Shown: positions 44,168-57,662, numbered from the stretch's first letter. The stretch is 64,000 bases of DNA from Spirochaetia bacterium (GCA_963662795.1 OY759746.1:2503817-2567816), one strand, 5' to 3'. Program-made: numbers and translations. Notes: generated by a model not told the origin, from the letters alone.

Positions 44168-44207
44168 ATAATTGTTAAAAAAGGTGATAACATATTATAA
44201 TGTAAAA

Positions 44208-46898
44208 ATGAAAAAGTATCTGTTTATTGTTATTCCGGTTTTGGCTGTCATTTTTTGTTCCCTGTTTCTCTTAACTTCACTTGACAGAAAAGTTTACGAT
44301 CTTTTTTTAAGAACTCTGCCTTCCCTTAAAGAAGATGAATCAGTTCTTATTGTAAAAGTTGATGATCTGTCTATTGAAAACGTTGGAATATTTCCCTGGA
44401 CAAGGGATATTCTGGCAGACGCGATTGTTTTTCTCCGTGAAATGGGAGCTGATTCAGTCGTATTCGATTTAAGCTATCTCGACAAAAGTCCGGTCAAGGT
44501 AGATCCCAAATATGTGAATCAGGAGCTGCCTGAATACCTTAACTATGGATTTAATCAGATTGATGATACCATCAGCCAGGTTATGGATGCATTTGCCGGC
44601 CGGCAGATCGGCCCTTCCGATGCTGATGCCTACAAGAGACAGATGCTGAATTTTAACAGCACGGTGCGCGAATCGCTGAATACTTCAATTTCGTATGTTG
44701 CCAGGGACGTTGATGCGTACTTCGCAAAGACACTCCGCTTCTTCGGCAAATCATATTTAACCCTGACCATGGTTACTCCGGAAGATATAATAGGTGAAGA
44801 CAAAACCTTTGATATGTCGCCTTACGATGTTAAATGGCTTGAAGAGAATGTCGCGCTTAAAAATATAACAGCACTAAACGATACACTGACGCCGCAGCTG
44901 CCGGGTATAATTCCCGCCATCCCTGAGCTGCTTACAAATGCCAGCGGTGCCGGATTTGTGAACGCAGCGCCCGATCAGGACGGATACCGCCGGAGGGTAC
45001 ACCTTCTGCTGAAATATAATGATAAATACTACGGACAACTTGGATTTGTTCCACTCCTCGATAAACTGGGAAACCCTGCGGTTGAGGTGACAAATAATTA
45101 TATTTTTCTTAAAAATGCTGTTATTAACGGCACGGCAAGGGATGTCAGAATTCCCCGTACCGAAGACGGCTCAATTCTTGTTAAATGGCCAAAAAAGGAA
45201 TTCAGGGACTATAATCAGATTTCATCATGGGACCTGATTGCGAATAACAGGCAGGAAGCAGTATTTGTTAAAAATCTTAAAGCCATGGAAGATGCCGGAT
45301 TTTTTTCCTACTGGAATGAAGGTGAGACTCCTCTTGATAAGTACAATAATGCGGAATATGTAAAACAGATGCTTTTTGAAGGAGAAAATAATCAGGCAGG
45401 GATAACATTTGAAACATATGCTGCTTACAGAAAGGGTTTTATTGATACATCTGATCAGTTTTTAAACGGCAAATATGAAGATATTATCCTTTCAGATATT
45501 GATAAGGACAACACTGCGGTTGTTGAATATGTTAATGGCTTTTTTAAAGCTGCACGGCAGCAGTACGCAGACCTGCTTGTTATCCGGGAAAAAGCTGAGA
45601 AAAAAACAGCCGGCGCCTTCTGTATTATCGGCGTTGATGCCACTTCCATGACTGACGACGGCCTGACTACATTCCAGGAGAGATTTCCTAATGTCGGTAT
45701 TCATGCTGCAGTAACAAACATGATTATATCTGAAGAGTTTCTGGATGATTCACCGGCTTACGTTTCCATAATTATTGCTCTAATACTTTCGGTATCACTC
45801 GGCATCTTTATCCAACGGTTCAATACCAAAAACGCGATGATTGCGGGGTTTCTTACTCTGGCAGTATCTGTTTTTTCCCTGCTCATTCTGTTTGTCCTCT
45901 TCCGCAGATATATAGGCGTAGTAGTTCCATTTGCCTCAATATCCGCAACCTTTCTTACGCTTTCAGGTATTAATTTCTTCGATACAATCAGGGAAAAATC
46001 ATTCCTGCGCTCCGCTTTTTCCCGGTATCTTGCCCCTGCTGTTATAAATGAAATTATTGCAGATCCTTCAAAATTAAATCTTGGAGGGGAAAAACGGGAA
46101 ATGACTGCAATTTTTACAGATATCAGGGGATTTTCAACTATTTCAGAAAGTCTTGATCCTGCCGATCTGGTTAAACTGCTGAACCTCTATTTGACTGATA
46201 TGAGTAATACAATTCTTGCAAACAGGGGAACAATTGATAAATATGAAGGAGATGCGATCATTGCATTTTTTGGAGCTCCCATTCATATGGCTGAGCATGC
46301 TGCCCTTGCGTGCCGCACAGCGATACAGATGAAAATAGCGGAAAAAGAACTGAATAAACGAATTATTGCGGAAAATCTCTGTCCGTCACAGCTATTCACC
46401 AGAATTGGTATTAATACAGGAGATATGATTGTCGGAAATATGGGAACACCGGATAAAATGGACTATACAATTATGGGAAACGCGGTAAACCTTGCCGCGC
46501 GGCTTGAAGGGGTAAATAAACAGTATGGTACCCGCGGTATCCTGATAAGCGAGCATACAAGGGCCCAGGTCGGGGATGAATTCCTCCTCCGCCGTCTTGA
46601 CCGGATCCGGGTTGTCGGTGTCAACAGGCCGCTCAGGATATTTGAGCTGCTTTCGTTTGCCAAGGATGCTGATATGATTACGGAAAGCTCTGCCGCATCA
46701 ATAATACCGCAATGGGAAAAGGCGATAGACCTCTATGAAAAACAATTATTCACAGAAGCCCGTGATATTTTTAAGGAAATTGCTGTAAAGGATAATGAGG
46801 ATATGGTTGCTCCGCTCTTTGCAGGCCGATGTGAGGCGTTCCTTAAAAATCCGCCGGTTAAGGACTGGGACGGGGTATTTACACTTTCAGAGAAGTAA
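44208..46898 (+). CDS. CHASE2-sensor class III adenylate/guanylate cyclase
   Basis: Signal-anchor, about 480 aa of extracytoplasmic CHASE2-like region, three TM helices, and the cyclase core REMTAIFTDIRGFS...GDAIIAFFGAP...GINTGDMIVGNMG. Start moved to ATG at 44208. Confidence 0.88.
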   Translation: MKKYLFIVIPVLAVIFCSLFLLTSLDRKVYDLFLRTLPSLKEDESVLIVKVDDLSIENVGIFPWTRDILADAIVFLREMGADSVVFDLSYLDKSPVKVDPKYVNQELPEYLNYGFNQIDDTISQVMDAFAGRQIGPSDADAYKRQMLNFNSTVRESLNTSISYVARDVDAYFAKTLRFFGKSYLTLTMVTPEDIIGEDKTFDMSPYDVKWLEENVALKNITALNDTLTPQLPGIIPAIPELLTNASGAGFVNAAPDQDGYRRRVHLLLKYNDKYYGQLGFVPLLDKLGNPAVEVTNNYIFLKNAVINGTARDVRIPRTEDGSILVKWPKKEFRDYNQISSWDLIANNRQEAVFVKNLKAMEDAGFFSYWNEGETPLDKYNNAEYVKQMLFEGENNQAGITFETYAAYRKGFIDTSDQFLNGKYEDIILSDIDKDNTAVVEYVNGFFKAARQQYADLLVIREKAEKKTAGAFCIIGVDATSMTDDGLTTFQERFPNVGIHAAVTNMIISEEFLDDSPAYVSIIIALILSVSLGIFIQRFNTKNAMIAGFLTLAVSVFSLLILFVLFRRYIGVVVPFASISATFLTLSGINFFDTIREKSFLRSAFSRYLAPAVINEIIADPSKLNLGGEKREMTAIFTDIRGFSTISESLDPADLVKLLNLYLTDMSNTILANRGTIDKYEGDAIIAFFGAPIHMAEHAALACRTAIQMKIAEKELNKRIIAENLCPSQLFTRIGINTGDMIVGNMGTPDKMDYTIMGNAVNLAARLEGVNKQYGTRGILISEHTRAQVGDEFLLRRLDRIRVVGVNRPLRIFELLSFAKDADMITESSAASIIPQWEKAIDLYEKQLFTEARDIFKEIAVKDNEDMVAPLFAGRCEAFLKNPPVKDWDGVFTLSEK

Positions 46899-46932
46899 AA
46901 AAAAAGACTGTTTATTAAAAACAGTCTTTTTT
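46897..46932. terminator. bidirectional rho-independent terminator shared by convergent genes
   Basis: A-tract, then AGACTGTTT-attaa-AAACAGTCT, then T-tract. It reads as a terminator on both strands. Confidence 0.8.
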
Positions 46933-46959: not shown

Positions 46960-47400
46960 TTATTCCTTTTTCTCTTCAACCCACTGCACATCTTCTACTG
47001 CGTCGCTTGCACGTGTTGAAGCGGTAGAAATGTTTGTCCGCCCCTGGACAGAATTGGCATTTACAGTACTGTCTGTTACAGCAGCGCCCAGTTTAATACC
47101 TGAAAGACCCTGAGCAGGGCTTGTCAGTTTTTCAACAGTGCCTTTCTGCATTGCCTTGACCGTGACCACCCTGTCTCCAATCTTAAGAATAAGAGAGGAA
47201 TTAAGACCGGTGTTTATCATTGTCGAGGGCGCAATTTTTTTGTCAGCGGATAAAGCTTCCCATTTGCCCGCAGAAACCTCATAACTCACAATTCCGTTTA
47301 CCGACTGGATAACAATATCCTGTCCTGAAACCTGAGCAAATAAAGCTGTGGAAATTGCAACAGTGCCCAGCACCATCGCCAATAAGAATATTTTCTTCAT
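46960..47400 (-). CDS. small secreted FecR-domain-like protein
   Basis: Signal peptide MKKIFLLAMVLGTVAISTALFA. FecR-like pattern G.VSYEV.AGKWEAL...INTGLNSSLILKIGDRVVTVKA. Start set at ATG 47400, which has GGAGG 5 nt upstream. Confidence 0.6.
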   Translation of the reverse strand: MKKIFLLAMVLGTVAISTALFAQVSGQDIVIQSVNGIVSYEVSAGKWEALSADKKIAPSTMINTGLNSSLILKIGDRVVTVKAMQKGTVEKLTSPAQGLSGIKLGAAVTDSTVNANSVQGRTNISTASTRASDAVEDVQWVEEKKE

Positions 47401-47494
47401 AGAATCCTCCACTTAATATATTATATAACACATCCGCCTGGAAATACAAGGTCGTCTCTGTTAAAGTGCTGTGTTACGGTAAAGAGCCAGTTTT

Positions 47495-50400
47495 TCATTT
47501 TTCATCCCTCTTTATCAGGTATTTACGCCTGAAATAAAGGTATGCGCAAATCATTATCCCGGTTGAAAACAGCAGAGCCATCAGCGCGATGTGGTTTTTA
47601 AAATATTCTGCAGCTGATATTTCAGGAGTTTCAGAAACAGTCATCTTTTTATTAAAAACTGTCTTTTCGGTTTCAGGTATTGATGCAGCATGCTCCGGAG
47701 AAGATACCTGAATTATTTCATTCACGGCTGATACATTTTCTCCCGTTCCCTGTGTTGTTTTGTTCATGCCGACAGAGGCTTCTGCATTTTCCGGTGCTGT
47801 ATTTACACTGCTTACAGTCTGAACTCCCTTAACTCCTGAATCAAATTGATAGCCGGCAACCTGAACAGTACTTTTCACAGCTTTTCTTGAAGTGGTAGAT
47901 TTAACCTGGTTCTGAGTAATACCTGAATAAGGTTCTGTAGTTTCAACCTGACTCACCCTGTGCTTTGAATATCTTGTTGTTGCGTTCCTGACAGAAGCAG
48001 ATGTATAGTCGGATATTGAAGTGGTTATGGAGTTTTCTGTATAACCTGCTGATCGGGAGGCGGCTCCTCCATATGTCCAGTCGTCGGTATCCCAAGTCAT
48101 TTGATATCCGTTGCTTGTTTCATTTCCCAGGTCGTCTGCAACACTGAACCGGAAAGTTTGCTCCTGAACTGAAACATCCAGAGCTGTTGTTGTTGTCAGC
48201 GACCCTGTTTTAACAGCTGTTGCGTGGGTATATGTTTTTACCGTGCCGTCGGTTATAGCCTGAGCCTTGGTACCTGTCCCCGGCCAGTAATAAATGATCC
48301 TGATTCCTGAAACTTCAGCAGAGGATAAAGTTATTGTTAATTTGTTGTTGGCGCTTGAAGCGCTTGGACTGGAAGCACCGGTATTTATCTCTGGAGCTGT
48401 CGTATCTACAGTGATTGTAGCCGAGTTTGATTTGGTAACATTACCGGCAGAATCCCTTACATAAAGATAGAAAGCCTTATCAGCCCCGTCAGTTGTAGCA
48501 GAAGCAAGGTTGACAGATGTAAGTGTCTGCGAGGTGCCTGTAAGAGTTTCCCATGTTTCAGCGCTGTACGCCGGTGCGGTAGTTTCGATCGTAACAATAT
48601 AGGCAGAAAGCGACGTGGTATCTGCAACAGTTAATGATGTTACAGGAACAGATGTAAGTGTTGCAGTCGATGGGTTGGTGAACACAAAGGTGCCGGTTAA
48701 TGTTGGTAGGATTCCTTCAATTATGATGTCTTTTGTGGTACCGCCGAGTGATTCGTCAGAGTCAAGTGCCGGCAATGCCAGATTAGCATTATTGCTGGCC
48801 GCGTCCTTTATTGTTCCTCCGTTCAGAACAAGTGCTGCTGTAGAAGCATAGTTAAGGTCTGAGGTTGTATCACCGGCTGCAACAGTGTAACTGAAAGTAA
48901 GGGCAGAAGTGTCCGATCCGCTTGTGTATGATATATTTTTGTTTCCAGAGGAAAGTGCAAGTGTGAGATAGGGTGTTCCTGTGACTGTCACAGCTTCCGG
49001 GAAATTAACCTTAATGGGTATTTCAGTTCCGGCAGGGTATGTACCAGTCTCTGTGGTTGTTGTAACGTTTGAGACTGTCGGTGCGGTTGTATCGATTTTT
49101 ATATTCTTTGTGGTACCACCGAGTGATTCGTCAGAGTCAAGTGCCGGCAATGTCAGATTAGCATTATTGCCGGCTGTGTCCTTTATTGTTCCTCCGTTCA
49201 GCACAAGGGCTGATGTACTTGCATAGTTTAGGTCTGCGCTTGTATCTCCGGCTGCAACAGTGTATGTGAATGAGAGCGCTGTTGTGCCTGAACCGGATGG
49301 GTCGTCTAATCCTATATTTTTGTTTCCAGAGGAAAGCGCAAGTGTGAGATAGGGCGTTCCTGTGACTGTCACAGCTTCCGGGAAATTGACCGTAATAGGT
49401 ATTTCAGTTCCGGCTGGATAGGAGCCGCTCTCCTTTGTTGTCGTAACGCTTGAGACTGTCGGTGCGGTTGTATCGATTTTTATATTCTTTGTGGTACCGC
49501 CGAGTGATTCGTCAGAGTCAAGTGCCGGCAATGTCAGATTAGCATTATTGCCAATTGAATCTTTTATAGTTCCTCCGTTCAGCACAAGGGCTGATGTACT
49601 TGCATAGTTTAGGTCTGCGCTTGTATCTCCGGCTGCAACAGTGTATGTGAATGAGAGCGCTGTTGTGCCTGAACCGGATGGGTCGTCTAATCCTATATTT
49701 TTGTTTCCAGAGGAAAGTGCAAGTGTGAGATAGGGCGTTCCTGTGACTGTCACAGCTTTGGAGAAATTGACCGTGATAGGTATTTCAGTTCCGGCTGGAT
49801 AGGAGCCGCTCTCCTTTGTTGTTGTAACGCTTGAAACTGTTGGCAGAACAGCGTCGATTACAATATTCTTTGTTGTACCGCCGAGCGACTCGGCAGAGGC
49901 AAGTGCCGGAAGAGTAAGTGTGGCATTATTGCCAATTGAATCTTTTATAGTTCCTCCGTTCAGCACAAGGGCTGATGTACTTGCATAGTTTAGGTCTGCG
50001 CTTGTATCTCCGGCTGCAACAGTGTATGTGAATGAGAGCGCTGTTGTGCCTGAACCGGATGGGTCGTCTAATCCTATATTTTTGTTTCCAGAGGAAAGTG
50101 CAAGTGTGAGATAGGGCGTTCCTGTGACTGTCACAGCTTTGGAGAAATTGACCGTGATAGGTATTTCAGTTCCGGCTGGATAGGAGCCGCTCTCCTTTGT
50201 TGTCGTAACGCTTGAAACTGTTGGCAGAACAGCGTCGATTACAATATTCTTTGTTGTACCGCCGAGCGACTCGGCAGAGGCAAGTGCCGGAAGAGTAAGC
50301 GTGGCATTGTTGCCGGCTGTGTCCTTTATTGTACCGCCGTTCAGCACAAGGGCTGATGTACTTGCATAGTTTAGGTCTGCGCTTGTATCTCCGGCTGCAA

Positions 50401-52540
50401 CAGTGTATGTGAATGAGAGCGCTGTTGTGCCTGAACCGGATGGGTCGTCTAATCCTATATTTTTGTTTCCAGGTGAAAGCGCAAGTGTGAGATAGGGCGT
50501 TCCTGTGACTGTCACAGCTTCTGAGAAATTAACCTTAATGGGTATTTCAGTTCCGGCAGGGTATGTACCAGTCTCTGTGGTTGTTGTAACGTTTGAGACT
50601 GTCGGTGGCATTGTATCTTTAAAAAAGTTCCGGGCAGCGATATCTGATACATTACCTGCCGTATCAGTTGCACGTATTCCAACCGTGAAAGGTCCGGATG
50701 AAAGCCCGTCGAAAGAGGTGATCGAATCAATCGAATTACCGCTCGCAAAAGGCTGCCAGCTGCCTGAATTAATTTGCACTTCAACTGTTCCTTCGCTTCC
50801 TGTAAAGCTGATGTCCTGAGTTCCATTCACATAAGCGCCGTTTGCGGGTGATGATATGGTGATTACCGGTTTTTCAGTATCTTTAGTGATTTCAAGCTGT
50901 GCGCTTAGTCCGCCTGGGTTGCCGGCTTTATCTGTAACTCGTGCTGTGATTTGTTTTGTCCCGTCTGTTCCAAAAGTCGCTGAGTTGAGAGTAAATATAT
51001 AATTGCCGGTAACCTCAGCAGCAGTCAATGTGTCTGACATCTTGACTGCTCCGTCGATCAGCAGGCTTATCGTGTCATCTTCTACCGCACCGCTTGATGC
51101 GAGAGGAGCTGTAATTGTCATGCTTGTCGTGTTTATATTTAAATATGATTCTGATTTGGTAAGGGTTTCCGGAGTTCCAGGCGGAATGGAATCATAAACT
51201 ACTTCAGCCGTTAAAGCTGTTAAGCTCACATTTCCTGCCTTGTCATAGGCTGCAATTGTTATTGTATTGTTGCCTTGTGCTGCAGGGGTGATATCTGTGA
51301 AAACCCCGTTAGTAGATGGATCCACAACACCTGATGCACCTGCTGTAACCTTATATTCTTTGATTCCCGAAAGTCCGTTGTCTGCACCTGAAACTGTGAA
51401 AGAAAGCGGTGAATTTGTTAATGCAGCTGGTGGCGACGGAGTAAAAGCCGGTGTATCCGGAGGCTGCCTGTCTAGTATAATGTTTGCTGTTTTTGTGAGT
51501 GATGGATTGTTTGATGGATCATATACAATAACAGAAATTGTTCTATTCCCGTCAATATCAGGCAGTGTAACAGGAATATTGTTTGTATGTGTATTGTTAT
51601 AAAGAGTGTTGTCAAATTCGTCTTTGATAAGAGCCTTCAGTTCGGTTGAACCGCTGTTATCTCCTACTTCGAAATTTAAAAGAATATTTCGTGAGTTTGT
51701 CGGATTATTGACTGGAAGAGCTGTACCGCTTTCATTCTTAACCGTAATGTCCAAAACTGTAGGAGGTTCTGTATCTTTTAGTTTACTGGTAACAAAGCGG
51801 ACTGTTTTACCTGCAGTCATTGTATTACCATTGAGATCCTCAATTTGTTGAAGAATTGTTACAAAAATCTCATAGTATGCATCGGTTGTTCCGAGAAAAT
51901 TATCTGATTTTAAATTTAGAGTTAATACAGAACCATCAAGGACCGGATCCTCAAAAAAAGAATTAATGGGATCAGGATCACTAGATGACCCGCTTAACCG
52001 GCGTTGTATAATGATGTTGCTCTGGGTTGCAGTATTTATATCAACCGGCCTGGAAAAAGTAATTTTTATCGGTCTAGTGATAATTACTTCCTGTTCGTTA
52101 TCATAAGGAGCTGTAGAAACAACGTACGGTCTTGTGTCAAACATTGCACGAATTTCAAGATTGGAAGTTTTTTTATTTACTGTGGCAGTTGTTTCTTTGC
52201 TTGCCGCGTTTGTGAATGTTATATCACCGGAATTTCCGCCGATCTGCATCCAGTTTAAAAAAGCGAATTCGCTGTTTGTAGTTGTTGTTATATTAAAAGG
52301 AACGCCGACTTTTACAATTGCTGCCCCGAGCGGGCTTGTTGTTCCCATACTGTCGCTTTCAGCGCGGACAGTTATTGTAACCTCTTCCGCATTGGCAATC
52401 AGAACTTCATCTTCTATTGCCGCCTTGAGGTCATCATCCCCTGACATGAAATTATTGCAGCTGCTGATGAAGCTGATTAAAAGGAATGCTGTTATTAAAA
52501 AAGCTATTAGAGCCTTTTGATTTCTAATGCGTTTTATCAT
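47495..52540 (-). CDS. giant (1681 aa) surface lipoprotein with Ig-like/SbsA-like domains, five near-identical tandem repeats and a C-terminal TM anchor
   Basis: Lipobox LISFISSC. Multiple beta-sandwich-like modules (D..PP.. boundaries). The C-terminal hydrophobic helix IALMALLFSTGIMICAYLYF is followed by RRKYLIKRDEK. Confidence 0.8.
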   Translation of the reverse strand: MIKRIRNQKALIAFLITAFLLISFISSCNNFMSGDDDLKAAIEDEVLIANAEEVTITVRAESDSMGTTSPLGAAIVKVGVPFNITTTTNSEFAFLNWMQIGGNSGDITFTNAASKETTATVNKKTSNLEIRAMFDTRPYVVSTAPYDNEQEVIITRPIKITFSRPVDINTATQSNIIIQRRLSGSSSDPDPINSFFEDPVLDGSVLTLNLKSDNFLGTTDAYYEIFVTILQQIEDLNGNTMTAGKTVRFVTSKLKDTEPPTVLDITVKNESGTALPVNNPTNSRNILLNFEVGDNSGSTELKALIKDEFDNTLYNNTHTNNIPVTLPDIDGNRTISVIVYDPSNNPSLTKTANIILDRQPPDTPAFTPSPPAALTNSPLSFTVSGADNGLSGIKEYKVTAGASGVVDPSTNGVFTDITPAAQGNNTITIAAYDKAGNVSLTALTAEVVYDSIPPGTPETLTKSESYLNINTTSMTITAPLASSGAVEDDTISLLIDGAVKMSDTLTAAEVTGNYIFTLNSATFGTDGTKQITARVTDKAGNPGGLSAQLEITKDTEKPVITISSPANGAYVNGTQDISFTGSEGTVEVQINSGSWQPFASGNSIDSITSFDGLSSGPFTVGIRATDTAGNVSDIAARNFFKDTMPPTVSNVTTTTETGTYPAGTEIPIKVNFSEAVTVTGTPYLTLALSPGNKNIGLDDPSGSGTTALSFTYTVAAGDTSADLNYASTSALVLNGGTIKDTAGNNATLTLPALASAESLGGTTKNIVIDAVLPTVSSVTTTKESGSYPAGTEIPITVNFSKAVTVTGTPYLTLALSSGNKNIGLDDPSGSGTTALSFTYTVAAGDTSADLNYASTSALVLNGGTIKDSIGNNATLTLPALASAESLGGTTKNIVIDAVLPTVSSVTTTKESGSYPAGTEIPITVNFSKAVTVTGTPYLTLALSSGNKNIGLDDPSGSGTTALSFTYTVAAGDTSADLNYASTSALVLNGGTIKDSIGNNANLTLPALDSDESLGGTTKNIKIDTTAPTVSSVTTTKESGSYPAGTEIPITVNFPEAVTVTGTPYLTLALSSGNKNIGLDDPSGSGTTALSFTYTVAAGDTSADLNYASTSALVLNGGTIKDTAGNNANLTLPALDSDESLGGTTKNIKIDTTAPTVSNVTTTTETGTYPAGTEIPIKVNFPEAVTVTGTPYLTLALSSGNKNISYTSGSDTSALTFSYTVAAGDTTSDLNYASTAALVLNGGTIKDAASNNANLALPALDSDESLGGTTKDIIIEGILPTLTGTFVFTNPSTATLTSVPVTSLTVADTTSLSAYIVTIETTAPAYSAETWETLTGTSQTLTSVNLASATTDGADKAFYLYVRDSAGNVTKSNSATITVDTTAPEINTGASSPSASSANNKLTITLSSAEVSGIRIIYYWPGTGTKAQAITDGTVKTYTHATAVKTGSLTTTTALDVSVQEQTFRFSVADDLGNETSNGYQMTWDTDDWTYGGAASRSAGYTENSITTSISDYTSASVRNATTRYSKHRVSQVETTEPYSGITQNQVKSTTSRKAVKSTVQVAGYQFDSGVKGVQTVSSVNTAPENAEASVGMNKTTQGTGENVSAVNEIIQVSSPEHAASIPETEKTVFNKKMTVSETPEISAAEYFKNHIALMALLFSTGIMICAYLYFRRKYLIKRDEK
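48704..50605 (-). repeat. five tandem coding repeats of about 381 bp (127 aa; the last copy is 375 bp)
   Basis: The string GTGTATGTGA recurs at 49260, 49641, 50022 and 50403, a period of exactly 381. A diverged copy lies near 48885. Adjacent copies are nearly identical over hundreds of bp. Confidence 0.95.
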
Positions 52541-55520
52541 AATCTGTTACTTCTCTTTTATTTATTATAGTCTTTTTTTTCTCAGCTTTCCTGTTTTTTG
52601 ATTTTAACTTCTTTCTCAGGATGCGAAGCCTGGCGCGCACAAAAACAGCAGTCCCAGCTGCTGCGGCCGCTATGAACGCCATCAGCGCAATGAAAGGAGC
52701 GGCTTTTGACGGAGATTCTGTTTTTACAGTCTCAGTTGATTCCGGTACCGGTACTGCAGGCACTGGCGCGGCAGGTAATTCTTCGATAACCGGGGCCTCA
52801 TCAACAGGATCTTCTTTTACAGAAGAGGGCTTTGGCAGAACAGGTTTAATAGCAGGGGCTGGCGGTTTTTTAATCTCTTCACTCTCTAAAATACCAGGGC
52901 TGATTTCTGAACCGCGCAATCCTGCTGATAGACCTTCTGTTTCCGGAATATCCGATAAAGCAAGTTCCATTGGGGCAGTCGGTGTCTCAACCGGTAAGAT
53001 TTCTTTTGGCTCGGTTTCCGGCCCTGCCTCAGCTGTTTCTATAACCCTGTCCGCCTTGTCATCGGTCGTTTTTTCATTAACTTCAGGGGCGATATTTTCT
53101 ATTACAGCAACGGAAACCTCAGCCTCCGGTACGGCAATAGCAGGTGCTGCTTCCGGTTTTTCTTCAGCGGCTAAAACAGGTTCAAGAGCCGGCTGTTCAG
53201 CTGCATCAGGTATCTTCGCAAGGTTATTGTTACCTTCTCCTGTAACAGACAGCATTGAAGAAAGTCCCGCGTTTCCGTTAAGAGGAAAATCTTCAGCAGG
53301 TGCTGTTTCCGGTTCATCAGCCGGACTCTCCGGCACCTTTTCCTGAGGATCGGGTTCTTCAGGCTGCACAGCAGGTTCCGATTTTTTTCCCGTGCTTATA
53401 GTTTCTGCAGGAGCTGCGGGAGGAAGGCTCCATTCTGTGGTGGAAAGCCGGTCTGCCAGCGACCAGGCCCTTCCCCTGGTATCAAAAAAGGACCCGAGAT
53501 AGGCATATTTCCTGGAAAGCGGTGCATCCTGTTTCTGGAGCGAAGCATACATTGCATCGGAGTTTCCGAAATCATCAAGTTCATAATTGCATCTTGCGGC
53601 TCCAAGCAGCGCAAGAGAATTGTTTTTGTCAATTGAAAGAACATAATTGTAGTATGTAAGAGCTTCATCGTATTTCTGCTCAATAAACAGTATGTTCCCG
53701 AGGTTTGTCCATGCGTTCATATCCTTGCCGCGGGCAGCTTTGGTGAATTCTGTTTTAGCCTGCAGTATCATTCCGTATTTCCCGTATAAAACGCCTAGCT
53801 TATTGCGGTTTTTAGGTGTATCGGAAACTGCGAGCAGTTCCTCGTAATGCCTTATCTGGGGACGGATCTCCCGCTCTGCATAATTGTTAAGTGTTTTATC
53901 AAAGGCAATCGCGGTTTTTGTCTCATCAGGCAGACTGAATCTGGAAACAGCTCCAGGAATACTTACAGGCTTATATATTTTCCAGGATTCCTTCATCGGC
54001 AGAATATTGGCAGTACCTCTTGAATCGGCATCATTCCATTCTTTGGCTCCGATTCTCCATGCTTTATTAAAGTCTTCTTTGATAAGTGTAATTTCAACCG
54101 GGACCCATGCTGTCCCGTCATGATAAATCAGAAGCTCCGGAGCATAAAAAGACTCCTTTGCTTCAGTTTCTGTCATTCCGGAGGAAAATGCCATAAAGAT
54201 ATGGCCGGGTATTGTTATAAATGCAGTATCAATACCGATTGCTTCAAGCAGTGAGCTGTACAATATCGATAGATCGTCACAGTCTCCCCCGCGGTACATC
54301 AGGGTCTGATAGGGATACTGCAGAAAGTCTATCGCAGTGCTGTTATCGGCGATTTCCGCGTATGAGCTTGAAGGGTCAATAACATAATTAGTTCCGTAGA
54401 TATCAAGAGCTTCAAAAATACCCATGGCATACTGCATATTTTTGTTTAAACCCATCCGGAAGCGGTCATTTACAATGCTTGAGACATACTTTGAGAACCA
54501 TAATGCGGCAGGATCTTTCGAAGATACAAATGCCGCAGCTCTCCTGTCATCTTCCCACGACATGGCATTTCGGTGAAAAACATTCATGGTTACCGGTATT
54601 TCAGCTTTCTGTTTTGCTCCAAGTCTTCTGTACTCAACAATAATCTTCGCCTGGGCATTAAGCGGTTCGCTTAACTCAAGCATTGTTTCCTTAAAAAAGG
54701 CGGAAACCGGAACATCAAAGGATTCCCCCGGCTTCAGGCTCTCAAAGCTTGAACATTCTTTCGGCTGTCCCATATACTGCTCAAGATAGAATGATGTTTT
54801 TACATCTGTAATTGTATTTTTTTCATTATTTGTAATTTTTATAATTGAGAACGGATTATCATCATACCATGAATACAATACAGGGAAAACAGGCTCCTGT
54901 TCCTCTTTTTCCGCGCTAATATTCCTTTCCCGGGAAAGAGCTTCCTTCAGGTTGATGGATATGCCTACTCCGATACTTAAGGAATTCATGAAGGGTTCCG
55001 GTGTATATGCATAATGCCTGTATGCTCCATATACTGATGTGCTTAATACAGGGGAGACATGATAGGTACCCTCAATTCTTGTCCCGGCTGATATTCCTGA
55101 TATTGAAGTTTCATTTCTACTGACTGAATAAATGCCGGTCATCAAATCAGTTCTCAGAGTCAGCCGGTCATTCATCTGCCAAAGCAGTCCGGCTCCGATG
55201 CTTCCGTCCGTTAAAGCAAGAGGTTCAATATTCTCAAGGCCTATGTTGACATATTCCCCCTGGGCAAAAATACTTAAAAACGGGAGCGGTGTAAAATCAA
55301 AGGCCGCAGACGCGCCCATACCGGGCTTAAATACAGGATCATTGACTGGGAAATAATAACCGGGATAAATCCTTACGCCTGTTGAAGATGAGTCTGCTGT
55401 AAGCAGGGGTGAAGAATATATGCAGATAAGCAGAAAAATAATAAGGCAATATTTTGATTTTTTCAGAGATTCTGTCATATCGGCAGGTAATAATTTATTT
55501 AACCGTTTCAGGGAAATCAT
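52524..55520 (-). CDS. envelope protein: beta-barrel-like N-domain, beta-sandwich, transglutaminase-like core (Cys-His intact), TPRs, Pro/Glu/Ala-rich spacer, C-terminal TM
   Basis: GGDCDDLSILYSSLLEAIGI...IPGHIFMAF...WVPVE core, TPR-like repeats, and a C-terminal helix FIALMAFIAAAAAGTAVFV followed by a basic tail. Start moved to ATG 55520 (AGGAG 13 nt upstream). ATG 55478 is also possible. Confidence 0.7.
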   Translation of the reverse strand: MISLKRLNKLLPADMTESLKKSKYCLIIFLLICIYSSPLLTADSSSTGVRIYPGYYFPVNDPVFKPGMGASAAFDFTPLPFLSIFAQGEYVNIGLENIEPLALTDGSIGAGLLWQMNDRLTLRTDLMTGIYSVSRNETSISGISAGTRIEGTYHVSPVLSTSVYGAYRHYAYTPEPFMNSLSIGVGISINLKEALSRERNISAEKEEQEPVFPVLYSWYDDNPFSIIKITNNEKNTITDVKTSFYLEQYMGQPKECSSFESLKPGESFDVPVSAFFKETMLELSEPLNAQAKIIVEYRRLGAKQKAEIPVTMNVFHRNAMSWEDDRRAAAFVSSKDPAALWFSKYVSSIVNDRFRMGLNKNMQYAMGIFEALDIYGTNYVIDPSSSYAEIADNSTAIDFLQYPYQTLMYRGGDCDDLSILYSSLLEAIGIDTAFITIPGHIFMAFSSGMTETEAKESFYAPELLIYHDGTAWVPVEITLIKEDFNKAWRIGAKEWNDADSRGTANILPMKESWKIYKPVSIPGAVSRFSLPDETKTAIAFDKTLNNYAEREIRPQIRHYEELLAVSDTPKNRNKLGVLYGKYGMILQAKTEFTKAARGKDMNAWTNLGNILFIEQKYDEALTYYNYVLSIDKNNSLALLGAARCNYELDDFGNSDAMYASLQKQDAPLSRKYAYLGSFFDTRGRAWSLADRLSTTEWSLPPAAPAETISTGKKSEPAVQPEEPDPQEKVPESPADEPETAPAEDFPLNGNAGLSSMLSVTGEGNNNLAKIPDAAEQPALEPVLAAEEKPEAAPAIAVPEAEVSVAVIENIAPEVNEKTTDDKADRVIETAEAGPETEPKEILPVETPTAPMELALSDIPETEGLSAGLRGSEISPGILESEEIKKPPAPAIKPVLPKPSSVKEDPVDEAPVIEELPAAPVPAVPVPESTETVKTESPSKAAPFIALMAFIAAAAAGTAVFVRARLRILRKKLKSKNRKAEKKKTIINKREVTDYDKTH

Positions 55521-55548
55521 ATGAAAAATACTTCTCCTGTTCCTCTCT

Positions 55549-57450
55549 CTATTCGGCAAGCTGGGATTGCATTCTGTTAAAACCGCTTTGAGCGGCCCTG
55601 TTGTCAGGTTCAATTTCAAGCGCTTTTTCAAACCAGCCGAGTGCTTCTTTATAATTACGCTGCAGTATTTCGATGTTTCCGAGATTTGTCATTGCCGCGG
55701 CTGAATCAAGTTCCGCAGATTTGATGAATTCCGCTTTTGCTTCATTATACAATCCTGCCCTTACATATAACAAGCCCAGTTTATTGTAAAGAACAACTGA
55801 TCCTCCGCTATTGCGAATTTCATTTTGCACATCTTTTATTCTTGGACCGAATTCTGCAGCAATGTATCTTAAGAAACTTGTTTCAACAGCTTTTTCTACA
55901 ACTGAGGCCGCCGGCTTCTGGAAAGCGGCTTCATTCCCTGTAATTCCGGACGGCGGATACGTTTTCCAGGCTTCCTGAAGCACTACAAAGTCAACCGGTC
56001 TGCCGCTGTTGATGGCTCTGGAAAGGTTATTTACAGCAGTATACCAGCTGTTGATAAAACCCTCACGCAGGACAGATAAAGACAGGGGCATCCATATTTC
56101 GTTCCCGATGGTAAGTAAATTATCAGTATTGTTAAAAAGTGCTACGGCCTGTTCCTGTGTGATATCGAGTGAAAAAGCTGTAATAAAATCATTATCAAGA
56201 GGAATCAGGGCTGTTTTTATTCCCACAGATTCAAGCGCGGCTGCGAAAAGTATTCCAAGATCATCATAATCCCCAAGCTTGTAGGAAAGTGTCTGGAATG
56301 GATATTGTATATAGTCAAGCAGTGCCGGGTCTTTGTGGAAAACTGTGTAGGGGGTTGTGTCATCTTTGGATGTGGTAATGCCGCCTGTATTAAGCCCCTC
56401 AAGCAGATACATGGCAAACTGCATGTTCCGGTTAAGGCCGCTTCGCAGATTGTTCCTCGCTATTCCCACAATATATTTTGAATAATCCATTACTTCAGGT
56501 GAATTGGGTGAAATGAATGAGGCAAGGACATCTGTACTGGTCCACCTGACCGAGTTTCGGTTATACACCGGGATAACCAGCGTTTGAAATGCAGTGCGTT
56601 CTGCTCCAAGAAGTTCGTATTTTATAACCAGTTCGCCCGGAATCATCCCGTTTTCCGTGAAGTTCTGTATGGTCTCCATAAAGTCGGCATAAAGCGGTAT
56701 TTTTGCTGTTTCCTTCTTTTTTAGTAACTCTTTTGTACCGCAGGCCATGAGGGAAGAGGTATAGTTTTCAGCCCTGAAACTTACAGATACATTGCGTATT
56801 TCGGCGGATTCATTATTGACGATTTCAATCGTACCTATTTTGTTGGTTTTATACATGCTGTAAAGGAGAGGGAATACCGGTTCCTGTTGTTCAAGTGTTA
56901 CTCCCACATTTCCGGCTGCTGTATCTGTGTCAAATGAAAGCCTGGCCGAGAGACCTAAAACTATTCCGGTATACATCGGCTCCTGTGAAGCAGTAAAATT
57001 TATATATCCTGCCCCGGCAGAGAAAACCAGGGTGGGGGACATCCTGAACCCTGCTTCCCCATATAATTTCCACCAGAGATCGCTGTATGAAAGTTCGTTG
57101 TATGTGAACTGGTACAAACCTCCGGACACGCCGAACAGCAGGGCAAGCCTCGAAAGCGGATAGGAAAACACGCTTGCATTAATCCCTGCTGAAGTGAAAT
57201 TGGGATATGTTCCGGTATTTAACAGAGGAGTCACATAATAGCTGAATTCAGGACCAAAAGCCAGAAGGTCGAATAACTGTACATCGGTGTTCAGGCATAC
57301 TCCGCCGCCGGGCGAAAAATATCGGGTTGTCTCATCGCCGACAGGAAAAATTGCGGTCGGGGTTGCTTTTATGTCAAAATCCAATGAATATATTTCGCCT
57401 GCTGACAGAAGCAGCAGAAAAAAACATAGAACACTGCCTGATAACTTCAC
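55549..57450 (-). CDS. envelope protein paralogous to 52524-55520, with a degenerate transglutaminase-like core, plus TPRs
   Basis: Signal peptide MKLSGSVLCFFLLLLSAGEIYS and the same domain order as its neighbour, but GDYDD / NDFITAF / WMPLS at the catalytic positions. GTG start with AAGAGG upstream. Confidence 0.7.
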   Translation of the reverse strand: MKLSGSVLCFFLLLLSAGEIYSLDFDIKATPTAIFPVGDETTRYFSPGGGVCLNTDVQLFDLLAFGPEFSYYVTPLLNTGTYPNFTSAGINASVFSYPLSRLALLFGVSGGLYQFTYNELSYSDLWWKLYGEAGFRMSPTLVFSAGAGYINFTASQEPMYTGIVLGLSARLSFDTDTAAGNVGVTLEQQEPVFPLLYSMYKTNKIGTIEIVNNESAEIRNVSVSFRAENYTSSLMACGTKELLKKKETAKIPLYADFMETIQNFTENGMIPGELVIKYELLGAERTAFQTLVIPVYNRNSVRWTSTDVLASFISPNSPEVMDYSKYIVGIARNNLRSGLNRNMQFAMYLLEGLNTGGITTSKDDTTPYTVFHKDPALLDYIQYPFQTLSYKLGDYDDLGILFAAALESVGIKTALIPLDNDFITAFSLDITQEQAVALFNNTDNLLTIGNEIWMPLSLSVLREGFINSWYTAVNNLSRAINSGRPVDFVVLQEAWKTYPPSGITGNEAAFQKPAASVVEKAVETSFLRYIAAEFGPRIKDVQNEIRNSGGSVVLYNKLGLLYVRAGLYNEAKAEFIKSAELDSAAAMTNLGNIEILQRNYKEALGWFEKALEIEPDNRAAQSGFNRMQSQLAE

Positions 57451-57469
57451 GGTTACCTCTTTAATTGTG

Positions 57470-57507
57470 ATTATAATTAATCAATGATTTTTCATCAATT
57501 GATTAAT
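57470..57507 (-). promoter_or_regulatory. candidate promoter (TTGATG-N17-TATAAT on the minus strand) overlapped by the perfect inverted repeat ATTAATCAAT-N12-ATTGATTAAT
   Basis: rc of 57470-57475 is TATAAT and rc of 57493-57498 is TTGATG. The repeat arms are 57476-57485 and 57498-57507. Confidence 0.4.
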
Positions 57508-57662
57508 AAAAAACCGGATTATGTAATTATATCATTAATTTGTGCGGCATAAAAATATTTTTTATTTTTGTATTAAGGTTTAATAGGATAAAATACAGTG
57601 CCGCATCAGATGATACTGATTTTTATTCTCTTCCGATGCGGTTGTTAAGAGGCGTATAACTT

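Follow-up and report, generated by a model that had tools for sequence, protein, structure and literature searches.

In a 64,000-nt stretch of the genome of a Spirochaetia bacterium (GCA_963662795.1, OY759746.1:2503817-2567816), referred to below as the window, four consecutive minus-strand genes, g1 to g4, encode two related proteins with a transglutaminase (TGase)-like core, a giant lipoprotein with immunoglobulin (Ig)-like repeats and a small protein with a signal peptide, and a gene for a CHASE2 class III nucleotidyl cyclase converges on g4 from the other side. The locus raises the question of whether these envelope proteins act together and, if so, in which process and with what connection to the cyclase. 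The cluster consists of two modules: module A is formed by a g2-like gene, with or without a g1 paralogue, and the gene of a cognate lipoprotein, and module B by g4 and the CHASE2 cyclase gene; the two are joined in the clade of the window. As a whole, and by analogy with the Lap systems for adhesin release, the locus may represent a Lap-like, protease-type envelope module (A) coupled to cAMP signalling (B), a tentative reading to which a probability of roughly 0.4 was given. In the following, L-numbers denote related loci and P-numbers g2-like representative sequences.

The g1/g2 pair and the lipoproteins encoded beside it

The products of g1 and g2 are paralogues with 30% identity over 640 aa (E 1e-88), both composed of a signal peptide, a β-barrel, a β-sandwich, a TGase-like core and tetratricopeptide repeats (TPRs). 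This arrangement had been proposed in a first-pass annotation of the window and is borne out by sequence alignment, structure modelling, Foldseek searches and Pfam matches across the family. The AlphaFold2 (AF2) model of g1, made from 35 homologues, has a predicted local distance difference test score (pLDDT) of 89.4, with about 90 in the barrel region. With this model as query, Foldseek returned OmpA-TM, NspA, Ail, OmpX and OmpW (E 5e-6 to 1e-3; TM-score relative to the target, TMt, 0.55-0.77). The solved barrels matched include 1bxw, 1p4t, 1qjp, 3qra and 2f1t (E 5e-6 to 4e-4, TMt 0.56-0.77), and the modelled barrel superposes on OmpA-TM and NspA, so that both its strands and its structural matches identify it as an 8-strand outer-membrane β-barrel of the OmpA-TM/OmpX/OmpW type. 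The C-terminus of g1 matches TPR proteins, and the transglutaminase TG2 (8tr9) was found at rank 40 (E 2.6e-3, probability 0.99, 242 columns, root-mean-square deviation 16.9, with the whole protein as query). Both termini of an 8-strand barrel lie in the periplasm, and the sandwich, core and TPR domains are therefore expected to face this compartment.

The layout of barrel, sandwich, core and TPRs is the same in g2, where the core carries the triad Cys414-His440-Glu476. Behind the TPRs, g2 continues into an Ala/Glu/Pro-rich linker of about 270 aa (691-960), a C-terminal transmembrane helix (943-961) and a basic tail, as judged from hydropathy and composition, and the g2 protein of this genome could thus bridge the outer and inner membranes. 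Among 46 long-class g2-like representatives, a C-terminal transmembrane segment was found in 13 by hydropathy threshold and in about 17 by inspection of the C-terminal sequence. Around 15 long g2-like proteins (e.g. P0250, P0252, P0253, P0258 and P0263) have no such anchor and end in a conserved C-terminal domain of the form …L-N-G-x-E-R-L…V-F-R-A-L-D-x-A-E-F-x-D-F….

For the g1 and g2 proteins of the window, Pfam reported only TPRs above threshold. Transglut_core (PF01841, clan Peptidase_CA) aligned to g2 with an E-value of 0.024 and 15.4 bits, below the cut-off of 23, with the site at G-G-D-C-D-D-L-S, and it gave no match to g1. The g2-like family comprises 2,755 representative clusters at 50% identity (E <= 1e-3, exhaustive search with a sandwich-plus-core query). 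In an alignment of 60 representatives, Transglut_core was matched by 51 proteins (E <= 0.01, best 1.3e-5), OMP_b-brl by 11 and DUF553 by 10; the g2-like protein of L027 matched Transglut_core with an E-value of 0.0022. Cys414, His440 and Glu476 are invariant in 60/60 representatives. The cysteine lies within the motif G-D-C-D-D-L at the N-terminus of a helix, the histidine on the next β-hairpin and the acidic residue, which a conserved Trp precedes, on a strand further along. The equivalent positions of the g1 model, occupied by Y395, D421 and S457, likewise lie at the start of a helix, in a β-hairpin and on a subsequent strand. Throughout the 35 g1 orthologues, the first position is Y, L, V or another residue, the second is Asp in 33 and the third Ser in 28, with the surrounding G-D-x-D-D scaffold kept. 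A Cys-His-acid triad in canonical order and context is present in g2 and absent from g1, and because all three triad residues have been lost, g1 is regarded as a pseudoenzyme. The earlier proposal of an enzyme with a pseudoenzyme partner is well supported by this pattern of conservation and loss.

Sequence searches of the PDB with g2, a g1 profile and a g2 core profile yielded nothing beyond TPR matches or marginal matches to TGase-like ciliary proteins (core profile E 0.22-0.91), and in a search of a representative library with the g2 core the best 150 matches were all close relatives, with no link to a named family. A LapG-type family was absent from the listed Pfam and NCBIfam matches of g1, g2 and the 60 relatives. 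No characterised protein in which barrel, β-sandwich, TGase-like core and TPRs are fused was found, the literature search yielded no publication on a spirochaetal barrel-TGase-TPR family, and members of the g2-like family appear in the database sources examined only as "TPR repeat protein" or "hypothetical".

The third gene encodes a 1681-aa Ig-repeat lipoprotein, as first annotated. It has the lipobox LISFISSC, followed by a conserved mature N-terminus (C-N-N-F-M-S-G-D-D-D...), a Pfam match to Big_5 (9.7e-11) with Big_13 and an OmpL47-type domain just under their cut-offs, and a tandem array of Ig-like repeats (Table 1). In relatives, the giant lipoproteins encoded after g2, which reach 3,100 aa, keep the N-terminal part of g3, about 300 aa in length. 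Lengths of the g3-orthologous giants range from about 1,300 to 3,100 aa; the number of repeats evidently changes readily and could give rise to proteins of different length. Like g2, g3 ends in a C-terminal transmembrane helix (1651-1669) and a basic tail (hydropathy scan), and this helix is present in the window and in L077 and not conserved in most g3 orthologues. At the C-termini of the orthologues in L006, L013 and L032, a charged tail comes after the shared motif P-[IF]-C-[ML]-P-[GV]-[RG], and the orthologues in L003, L008 and L012 end in I-W-E-K-L-L-[AS]-F-F-G; judged from their sequences, these varied ends may serve as sorting or anchoring signals. The helix and basic tail at the ends of g2 and g3 were also considered as a sortase- or exosortase-type signal, which was rejected, as they have no conserved preceding motif and are not kept among orthologues.

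A lipoprotein gene beside the g2-like gene is the rule in the family. A search of metagenomes with the g2 core gave 80 loci, and in 55 of the 62 that could be assessed, a lipoprotein gene follows immediately 3' of the g2-like gene (45 by pattern match, 10 by inspection). About 35 of these 55 lipoproteins carry the g3-type N-terminal domain, and a g1 paralogue stands upstream of the g2-like gene in roughly 28 metagenome loci. The mature N-termini of about 40 distinct partner lipoproteins follow the pattern C-[DEKQS]-N-[FWP]-[ML]-x-x-D-D, then (D/E)-V-x-V-A-N-A. Beyond this extreme N-terminus, the partners are highly diverse: they extend from a 316-aa FGE-sulfatase-domain protein over 500-aa proteins with no recognised domain to the Ig-like giants, and the 700-aa, single-copy class of g2-like proteins is accompanied by unrelated lipoprotein cargo (Ig-like/FG-GAP, FGE-sulfatase or no recognised domain).

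These data bear on the type of reaction catalysed by g2. If g2 were a true transglutaminase, Gln-Lys isopeptide bonds could join copies of g3 to one another or to components of the envelope, perhaps including g4 through its near-invariant A-M-Q-K-G motif, and a covalently stabilised layer would be the result. Such a cross-linking scaffold agrees with the placement of the g2 family in the transglutaminase-like superfamily and the Foldseek match to TG2, with a long, repetitive, Ig-like g3 suited to polymer formation, and with the adjacent Gln-Lys pair at positions 85-86 of g4. However, most bacterial transglutaminase-like proteins that have been studied, e.g. LapG, are hydrolases, and a set of highly diverse lipoproteins with only the extreme N-terminus in common fits the recognition of an anchoring segment better than the formation of a polymer. 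Cross-linking is considered unlikely, and a hydrolytic action of g2 is preferred in what follows.

The small protein g4, the CHASE2 cyclase and their linkage to module A

The AF2 model of g4 consists of a β-domain at residues 29-88 (pLDDT about 85) and a disordered tail (pLDDT <55). The sole significant PDB match of this model is 5ix9 (Foldseek E 2.3e-3, probability 1.0, TMt 0.72, 76 columns, all residues aligned). The 5IX9 structure is that of RIN (PMC5550230): this domain forms the N-terminal, periplasmic part of the anchor by which the RTX adhesin MpIBP is held in the outer membrane, and it plugs a TolC-like pore. A retention (RIN) β-domain fold is indicated for g4 by this one match, obtained on a model with a domain pLDDT of about 85. 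The NCBIfam model NF033682 (retention_LapA, "retention module-containing protein") was matched by 24/30 g4-family members with a best E-value of 2.7e-5; the seven matches whose scores were inspected reach 15-24 bits against a curated cut-off of 50 and start at profile position 2 and end between 69 and 93 of 145. The g4 family thus stays below the curated threshold, and g4 of the window itself had no listed match to this model at E <= 5. Because the fold match is accompanied by weak NF033682 matches that consistently fall in the same register, g4 is put forward, weakly, as a candidate remote, stand-alone retention-module-like protein. With the g4 alignment as profile, only close small orthologues were among the matches listed from a large sequence collection. 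The literature search found no publication linking CHASE2 with retention modules.

In the first-pass annotation g4 had been described as a FecR-fold protein, a description that could not be maintained on the basis of sequence. No Pfam model matched g4 of the window (E <= 10) or 30 relatives, with FecR (PF04773) at 0/30 even at E <= 5; hhalign with two bona fide FecR proteins, encoded in L003 and L005, gave an E-value of 0.12 and a probability of 0.5, and the Foldseek list of g4 contained no FecR or PupR structure, the retention domain 5IX9 being found instead. What likeness there is to FecR is at motif level, in the loose pattern G..L....I.TG..S.L.L. Of the domain assignments made at first pass, those of TGase-like core, barrel, TPR and Ig domains in genes 1 to 3 are supported, and that of FecR in gene 4 is not. 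A DUF5666 label, carried in UniRef by a homologue from T. zuelzerae, was rejected as well, having no Pfam support in the 30 members.

The tail of g4 contains the invariant S125-T-A-S-T-R-A131, then an acidic C-terminus with a conserved W140; in the window and the related loci scanned, the STASTRA motif occurs only in g4-family ORFs (open reading frames). The di-alanine site [T/A/P]AAG is not conserved in the family, which has the consensus G-I-K-L-G-A-K-V. Tandem copies of g4 beside the cyclase are common (L006, L007, L011, L013, L028, L030, L031, L035 and L037). An orphan paralogue with 58% identity is located in L046 (10001-10453), away from any cyclase and beside a small ORF with no recognised domain.

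The gene convergent with g4 was confirmed as that of a CHASE2 cyclase by Pfam matches to CHASE2 and Guanylate_cyc. After an N-terminal transmembrane segment, its product has a periplasmic CHASE2 domain (about 30-520), further transmembrane segments (about 523-600) and the cyclase domain (642-816), as seen from Pfam and hydropathy, and the sensor between transmembrane segments together with the Guanylate_cyc domain defines it as a CHASE2 class III cyclase. The specificity pair reads Lys (DKYEGD) and Asp (MDYT), a pair which we take to confer adenylate specificity in class III cyclases; the sequence thus suggests an adenylate cyclase. Orthologues of this cyclase have a conserved, helical, TPR-like region of about 90 aa after the catalytic domain, and end in W-D-G-V-F-N-L-T-Q-K in the clade of the window, with W-D-G-V-F-T-L-S-E-K in the window itself. 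L001 (1-4022) encodes, some 6 kb upstream of its g1 orthologue, a cNMP_binding-GGDEF-DHH protein and a BrkB-cNMP_binding protein, which are possible cAMP effectors; no comparable cNMP-binding protein was found among the Pfam-scanned ORFs of the window. Beyond the cyclase in L003 (14869-17721) and L005 (14702-17778) lie a DUF8295 gene, a genuine FecR (PF04773) gene and an unannotated gene, and this set is embedded among Mur ligase and Ddl cell-wall genes, where the window has a hydrogenase operon.

When one genome per GTDB species was scanned with the g4 alignment, 40 loci were obtained, all from Treponema or Spirochaetales. In 38 of the 39 that could be assessed, g4 adjoins an orthologous CHASE2 cyclase gene. 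The two genes converge in the relatives of the window. In Treponema from rumen and gut, T. bryantii and T. ruminis among them, they have the same direction in an operon-like layout, with g4 immediately upstream of the cyclase gene. Neither g1 nor g2 lies within 10 kb in these rumen and gut loci, and a g3-like gene upstream of g4 is seen in L033 alone. Within the clade of the window, defined by a cyclase score above 1000, g2 and/or a g3-type lipoprotein gene is adjacent to the g4-cyclase pair in 11 of 12 assessable loci. The gene order of the window, or parts of it, is found in L001, L003, L005, L006, L008, L012, L013, L017 and L032, and variants occur as g4-g1-g2 in L019, as g4 convergent with the cyclase gene and followed by g2-like and lipoprotein genes in L027, as a g3-like gene beyond the cyclase gene in L029, and as g3-like gene, g4 and cyclase gene in L033. 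The four-gene order assigned to the window accordingly recurs in relatives, but not as one indivisible unit, as modules A and B also occur apart. The juxtaposition in different gene orders in L019, L027, L029 and L033 favours a link between the modules.

Two further explanations depend on how this linkage is judged. In the first, g2-like proteins would take hold of their cognate lipoprotein by its N-terminal tether and aid its insertion into the outer membrane or its display at the surface, and the g4-cyclase pair would be independent. The lipoprotein gene directly after the g2-like gene in 55/62 loci, the conserved motif after the lipid-bearing Cys, the frequent separation of modules A and B and weak matches to Pfam TPR_Slam in 5/60 family members are all compatible with such handling or sorting, for which Slam of Neisseria, made of TPRs and an outer-membrane barrel, is a loose analogue. 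On the other hand, an 8-strand barrel would probably be too narrow for a translocon, an invariant Cys-His-Glu triad implies catalysis rather than chaperoning, and the repeated re-juxtaposition with g4 and the cyclase gene in different orders argues for a link between the modules. Lipoprotein handling alone is regarded as improbable.

In the second, there would be no joint function, and the locus would hold clade-specific neighbours, an adhesin locus (g1-g3) and an unrelated g4-cyclase signalling pair. Each module is common without the other and a promoter-like site is located upstream of g4, but the juxtaposition in 11/12 assessable clade loci, with at least four gene orders, speaks against mere neighbourhood. 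A role in anti-phage defence was weighed as a further alternative, since the NCBIfam model antiphage_ProA matches the sandwich and TGase region of g2 (E 1.4e-8) and the cyclase matches PycC models of PADLOC. The ProA match reaches 32.6 bits, where the cut-off is 1500, and is confined to a shared N-terminal domain; PADLOC gave zero matches for g1-g4, the match to PycC stems from the class III cyclase fold that both have, with no cNMP (cyclic nucleotide monophosphate)-effector gene adjacent, and the flanking genes are housekeeping redox genes. A defence system of the ProA or Pycsar type was rejected on these grounds of threshold and effector partner, and the absence of any joint function is held to be distinctly unlikely.

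Layout of the locus, transcription signals and neighbouring genes

The four minus-strand ORFs of the first-pass annotation were all recovered as they had been placed (Table 1), with a 28-nt gap between g1 and g2, a 17-nt overlap of g2 and g3, and a 94-nt gap between g3 and g4. The open frame of g2 reaches further, to a TTG at 55631. All four products are predicted to be envelope-targeted, in line with the earlier claim, by Sec-type signal peptides in g1, g2 and g4 and the lipobox of g3 (sequence reading and hydropathy scan).

Table 1. Features of the g1-g4 locus, in window coordinates; domains of g1 in residues
Feature	Position	Strand	Description	Basis
g1	55549-57450	-	633 aa	ORF call
g2	52524-55520	-	998 aa	ORF call
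g3	47495-52540	-	1681 aa	ORF call
g4	46960-47400	-	146 aa; alternative GTG start at 47412 gives 150 aa	ORF call
g1 domains			signal peptide; 8-strand β-barrel 24-174; β-sandwich 182-295; TGase-like α/β core 306-500; TPRs 515-632	AF2 model
Tandem repeat in g3	48732-50607	-	4.9 copies of 381 bp (127-aa Ig-like), 91% match, no indels	
CHASE2 class III nucleotidyl cyclase gene	44172-46898	+	CHASE2 4.7e-32, Guanylate_cyc 2.2e-18; convergent with g4	Pfam
Promoter-like site	57498-57470	-	upstream of g1; -35 TTGATG, 17-nt spacer, -10 TATAAT, 10/12 sigma-70-like	consensus matching only
AT-rich palindromes	57462-57521	-	overlapping the promoter-like site of g1	
Further promoter-like site	55773-55744		directly upstream of g2	
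Further promoter-like site	47444-47415		directly upstream of g4	
Bidirectional intrinsic-terminator-like hairpin	46900-46932	.	14-nt arms 100% complementary, 5-nt loop, A8 and T8 flanks	
Hairpin	57601-57641		after the upstream flavodiiron gene	consensus matching only
ORF antisense to g2	52621-53346	+	241 aa	

A single promoter had been assumed for the four genes. A sigma-70-like site with overlapping palindromes does lie upstream of g1, but it is not the sole candidate, as similar sites are found directly upstream of g2 and g4. A consensus match is weak evidence in this AT-rich region, where 34 promoter-like sites were found against 19.9 expected; in view of the other sites and this excess, a single promoter is plausible and not established. 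The near-palindrome TTAATCAATTGATGAAAAATCATTGATTAA, within the palindromic stretch, overlaps the -35 element of the g1 site and has the look of an operator. It was also compared with operators of the CRP/FNR type, which were rejected since its spacing, TTGA-N7-TCA, does not fit the consensus.

The terminator reported after g4 is present, as a perfect 14-bp stem flanked by A- and T-runs, and sits between the convergent g4 and cyclase genes, serving both. Behind the flavodiiron gene upstream of g1 stands a further hairpin, which would fit a separate transcription unit. In the part of g2 encoding the Ala/Glu/Pro-rich linker, the antisense ORF is most likely an artefact of composition bias and was discarded.

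The cluster is flanked on one side by an [FeFe]-hydrogenase operon and Rex, and on the other by genes for a flavodiiron protein, rubrerythrin, desulfoferrodoxin, ferritin and an HD-GYP response regulator (Pfam scan), which by these annotations are unrelated housekeeping functions.

Proposed mechanism and comparison with known systems

The Lap-like reading can be laid out as follows, where the enzyme chemistry, the substrates and the direction of signalling are those that we infer. The g2 protein would be an enzyme of the transglutaminase fold with a Cys-His-Glu triad, facing the periplasm; its own 8-strand barrel would hold it in the outer membrane and, in this genome, the Ala/Glu/Pro-rich linker and the C-terminal transmembrane helix would also tether it to the inner membrane. 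Its catalytically dead paralogue g1 is probably a scaffold partner, and the TPRs of both may bind peptide or protein. The client of the pair would be the lipoprotein encoded immediately downstream (g3), recognised by its C-x-N-[FWP]-[ML] N-terminal tether. The action of g2 is most likely hydrolytic and LapG-like, so that clipping or processing of the anchoring segment would control the display or release of g3. As a free periplasmic protein, g4 could be a dedicated partner, either ligand or co-sensor, of the CHASE2 domain, and where the modules are joined, the state of g1, g2 and g3 would probably be coupled to cAMP synthesis through g4, possibly by binding or cleavage of the invariant g4 tail by g2 or the TPRs. 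A more specific version, in which the locus would be an outside-in counterpart of Lap in spirochaetes, appears quite doubtful: g2 and g1 would clip the lipoprotein tether and bind or cleave the g4 tail, intact or processed g4 would act as the CHASE2 ligand, and envelope status would thus be converted to cAMP.

Several observations weigh against the Lap-like reading. On the side of module A, g2 stands outside the BTLCP/LapG family, scores under the Transglut_core threshold in the window and has Glu rather than Asp as the third triad residue, and its chemistry may be that of a cross-linking transglutaminase. On the side of module B, the retention-module assignment of g4 is weak, with inspected scores of 15-24 bits against 50 and one Foldseek match at 2.3e-3; a PDB sequence-profile search with the g4 alignment returned nothing, and g4 has no LapG [T/A/P]AAG site. 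The promoter-like site just 5' of g4 means that this gene may be transcribed apart from g1-g3. As to linkage, no g4 or cyclase gene was found beyond the lipoprotein gene in 6/6 metagenome loci in which that gene ends inside the locus, L081 has a cyclase fragment about 1.9 kb upstream of g1 and no g4, and the rumen and gut Treponema loci have g4 and cyclase with no g1-g3 nearby. Because modules A and B occur apart, their juxtaposition could be inherited within one clade rather than functional. Physical contact between any pair of the products is likewise something we infer.

The locus is of interest beyond this genome. Extracytoplasmic sensor domains of the CHASE2 type are widespread, and for most of them no ligand is known; g4, a secreted protein of 146 aa that accompanies the cyclase in 38/39 assessable loci, is a concrete and testable candidate for a CHASE2 partner. 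For the g2-like family of 2,755 clusters, an architecture is provided together with a recurrent client, the downstream lipoprotein with its C-x-N-[FWP]-[ML] start. To our knowledge, there is no settled mechanism for the sorting, display or release of surface lipoproteins in spirochaetes, and an enzyme/pseudoenzyme pair dedicated to particular lipoproteins bears on this question. Should the outside-in counterpart of Lap prove true, CHASE2 would gain its first defined protein partner family, and the unannotated family of about 2,750 clusters would be lipoprotein-processing enzymes.

The combination of families had at first been regarded as unrecognised, but two partial precedents exist, the Lap-type release of adhesins and clusters of CHASE2 cyclases with FecR-domain and TPR proteins. 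In the Lap and Dvh systems of Pseudomonas, Vibrio and Desulfovibrio (LapA, LapG and LapD), the transglutaminase-like protease LapG cleaves just after the retention modules of the adhesin and uses these modules as docking handles (PMC13090378). Four elements are shared with the present locus: a periplasmic transglutaminase-fold enzyme with a Cys-His-acid triad, a giant protein of the cell surface that is built of repeats, a signalling protein for cyclic nucleotides that has a periplasmic domain, and a retention-type β-domain with a conserved motif in the unstructured segment behind it. The differences are equally clear. Here, g2 is not BTLCP by hidden Markov model, is fused to an outer-membrane barrel and TPRs, and has a triad ending in Glu instead of Asp; the retention-like domain is a free, Sec-exported protein of 146 aa (g4) and not the N-terminus of an adhesin; and the giant protein (g3) is a lipoprotein, not an RTX substrate of a type I secretion system. 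No TolC-like, ABC transporter/membrane fusion protein or LapD gene is present in the flanks (37384-63601), and the signalling partner is a cAMP-type cyclase, a sensor working outside-in, in place of an inside-out c-di-GMP receptor. None of the marks of a Lap system proper (a LapG-family protease, an adhesin retention module with cleavage site, LapD/LapEBC) was found.

As for the second precedent, CHASE2 cyclases of Campylobacterota are encoded in clusters with FecR-domain and TPR proteins (PMC9239204), and in S. meliloti CHASE2 cyclases signal through the outer-membrane β-barrel protein NsrA, in the CyaD1/CyaD2/CyaK-NsrA pathway (PMC13001267, PMC5498481). Both there and in the present locus, a class III cyclase with a CHASE2 domain is linked to a small β-rich protein of the periplasm or outer membrane, to TPR proteins of the envelope and to an outer-membrane β-barrel, and among the relatives of the window a real FecR (PF04773) gene follows a few genes beyond the cyclase gene in L003 and L005. 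The mechanisms of the Campylobacterota and S. meliloti clusters are themselves largely obscure. In the window, by contrast, g4 has no FecR match, barrel and TPRs are fused to a transglutaminase-like domain, and the cluster has no phosphodiesterase gene. Taken singly, the parts of the locus can be recognised, and what is new and uncharacterised is how they are wired together. A retention-like domain that stands alone next to a transglutaminase-like enzyme suggests a reuse of the Lap logic, a protease with its docking domain, in a different wiring.

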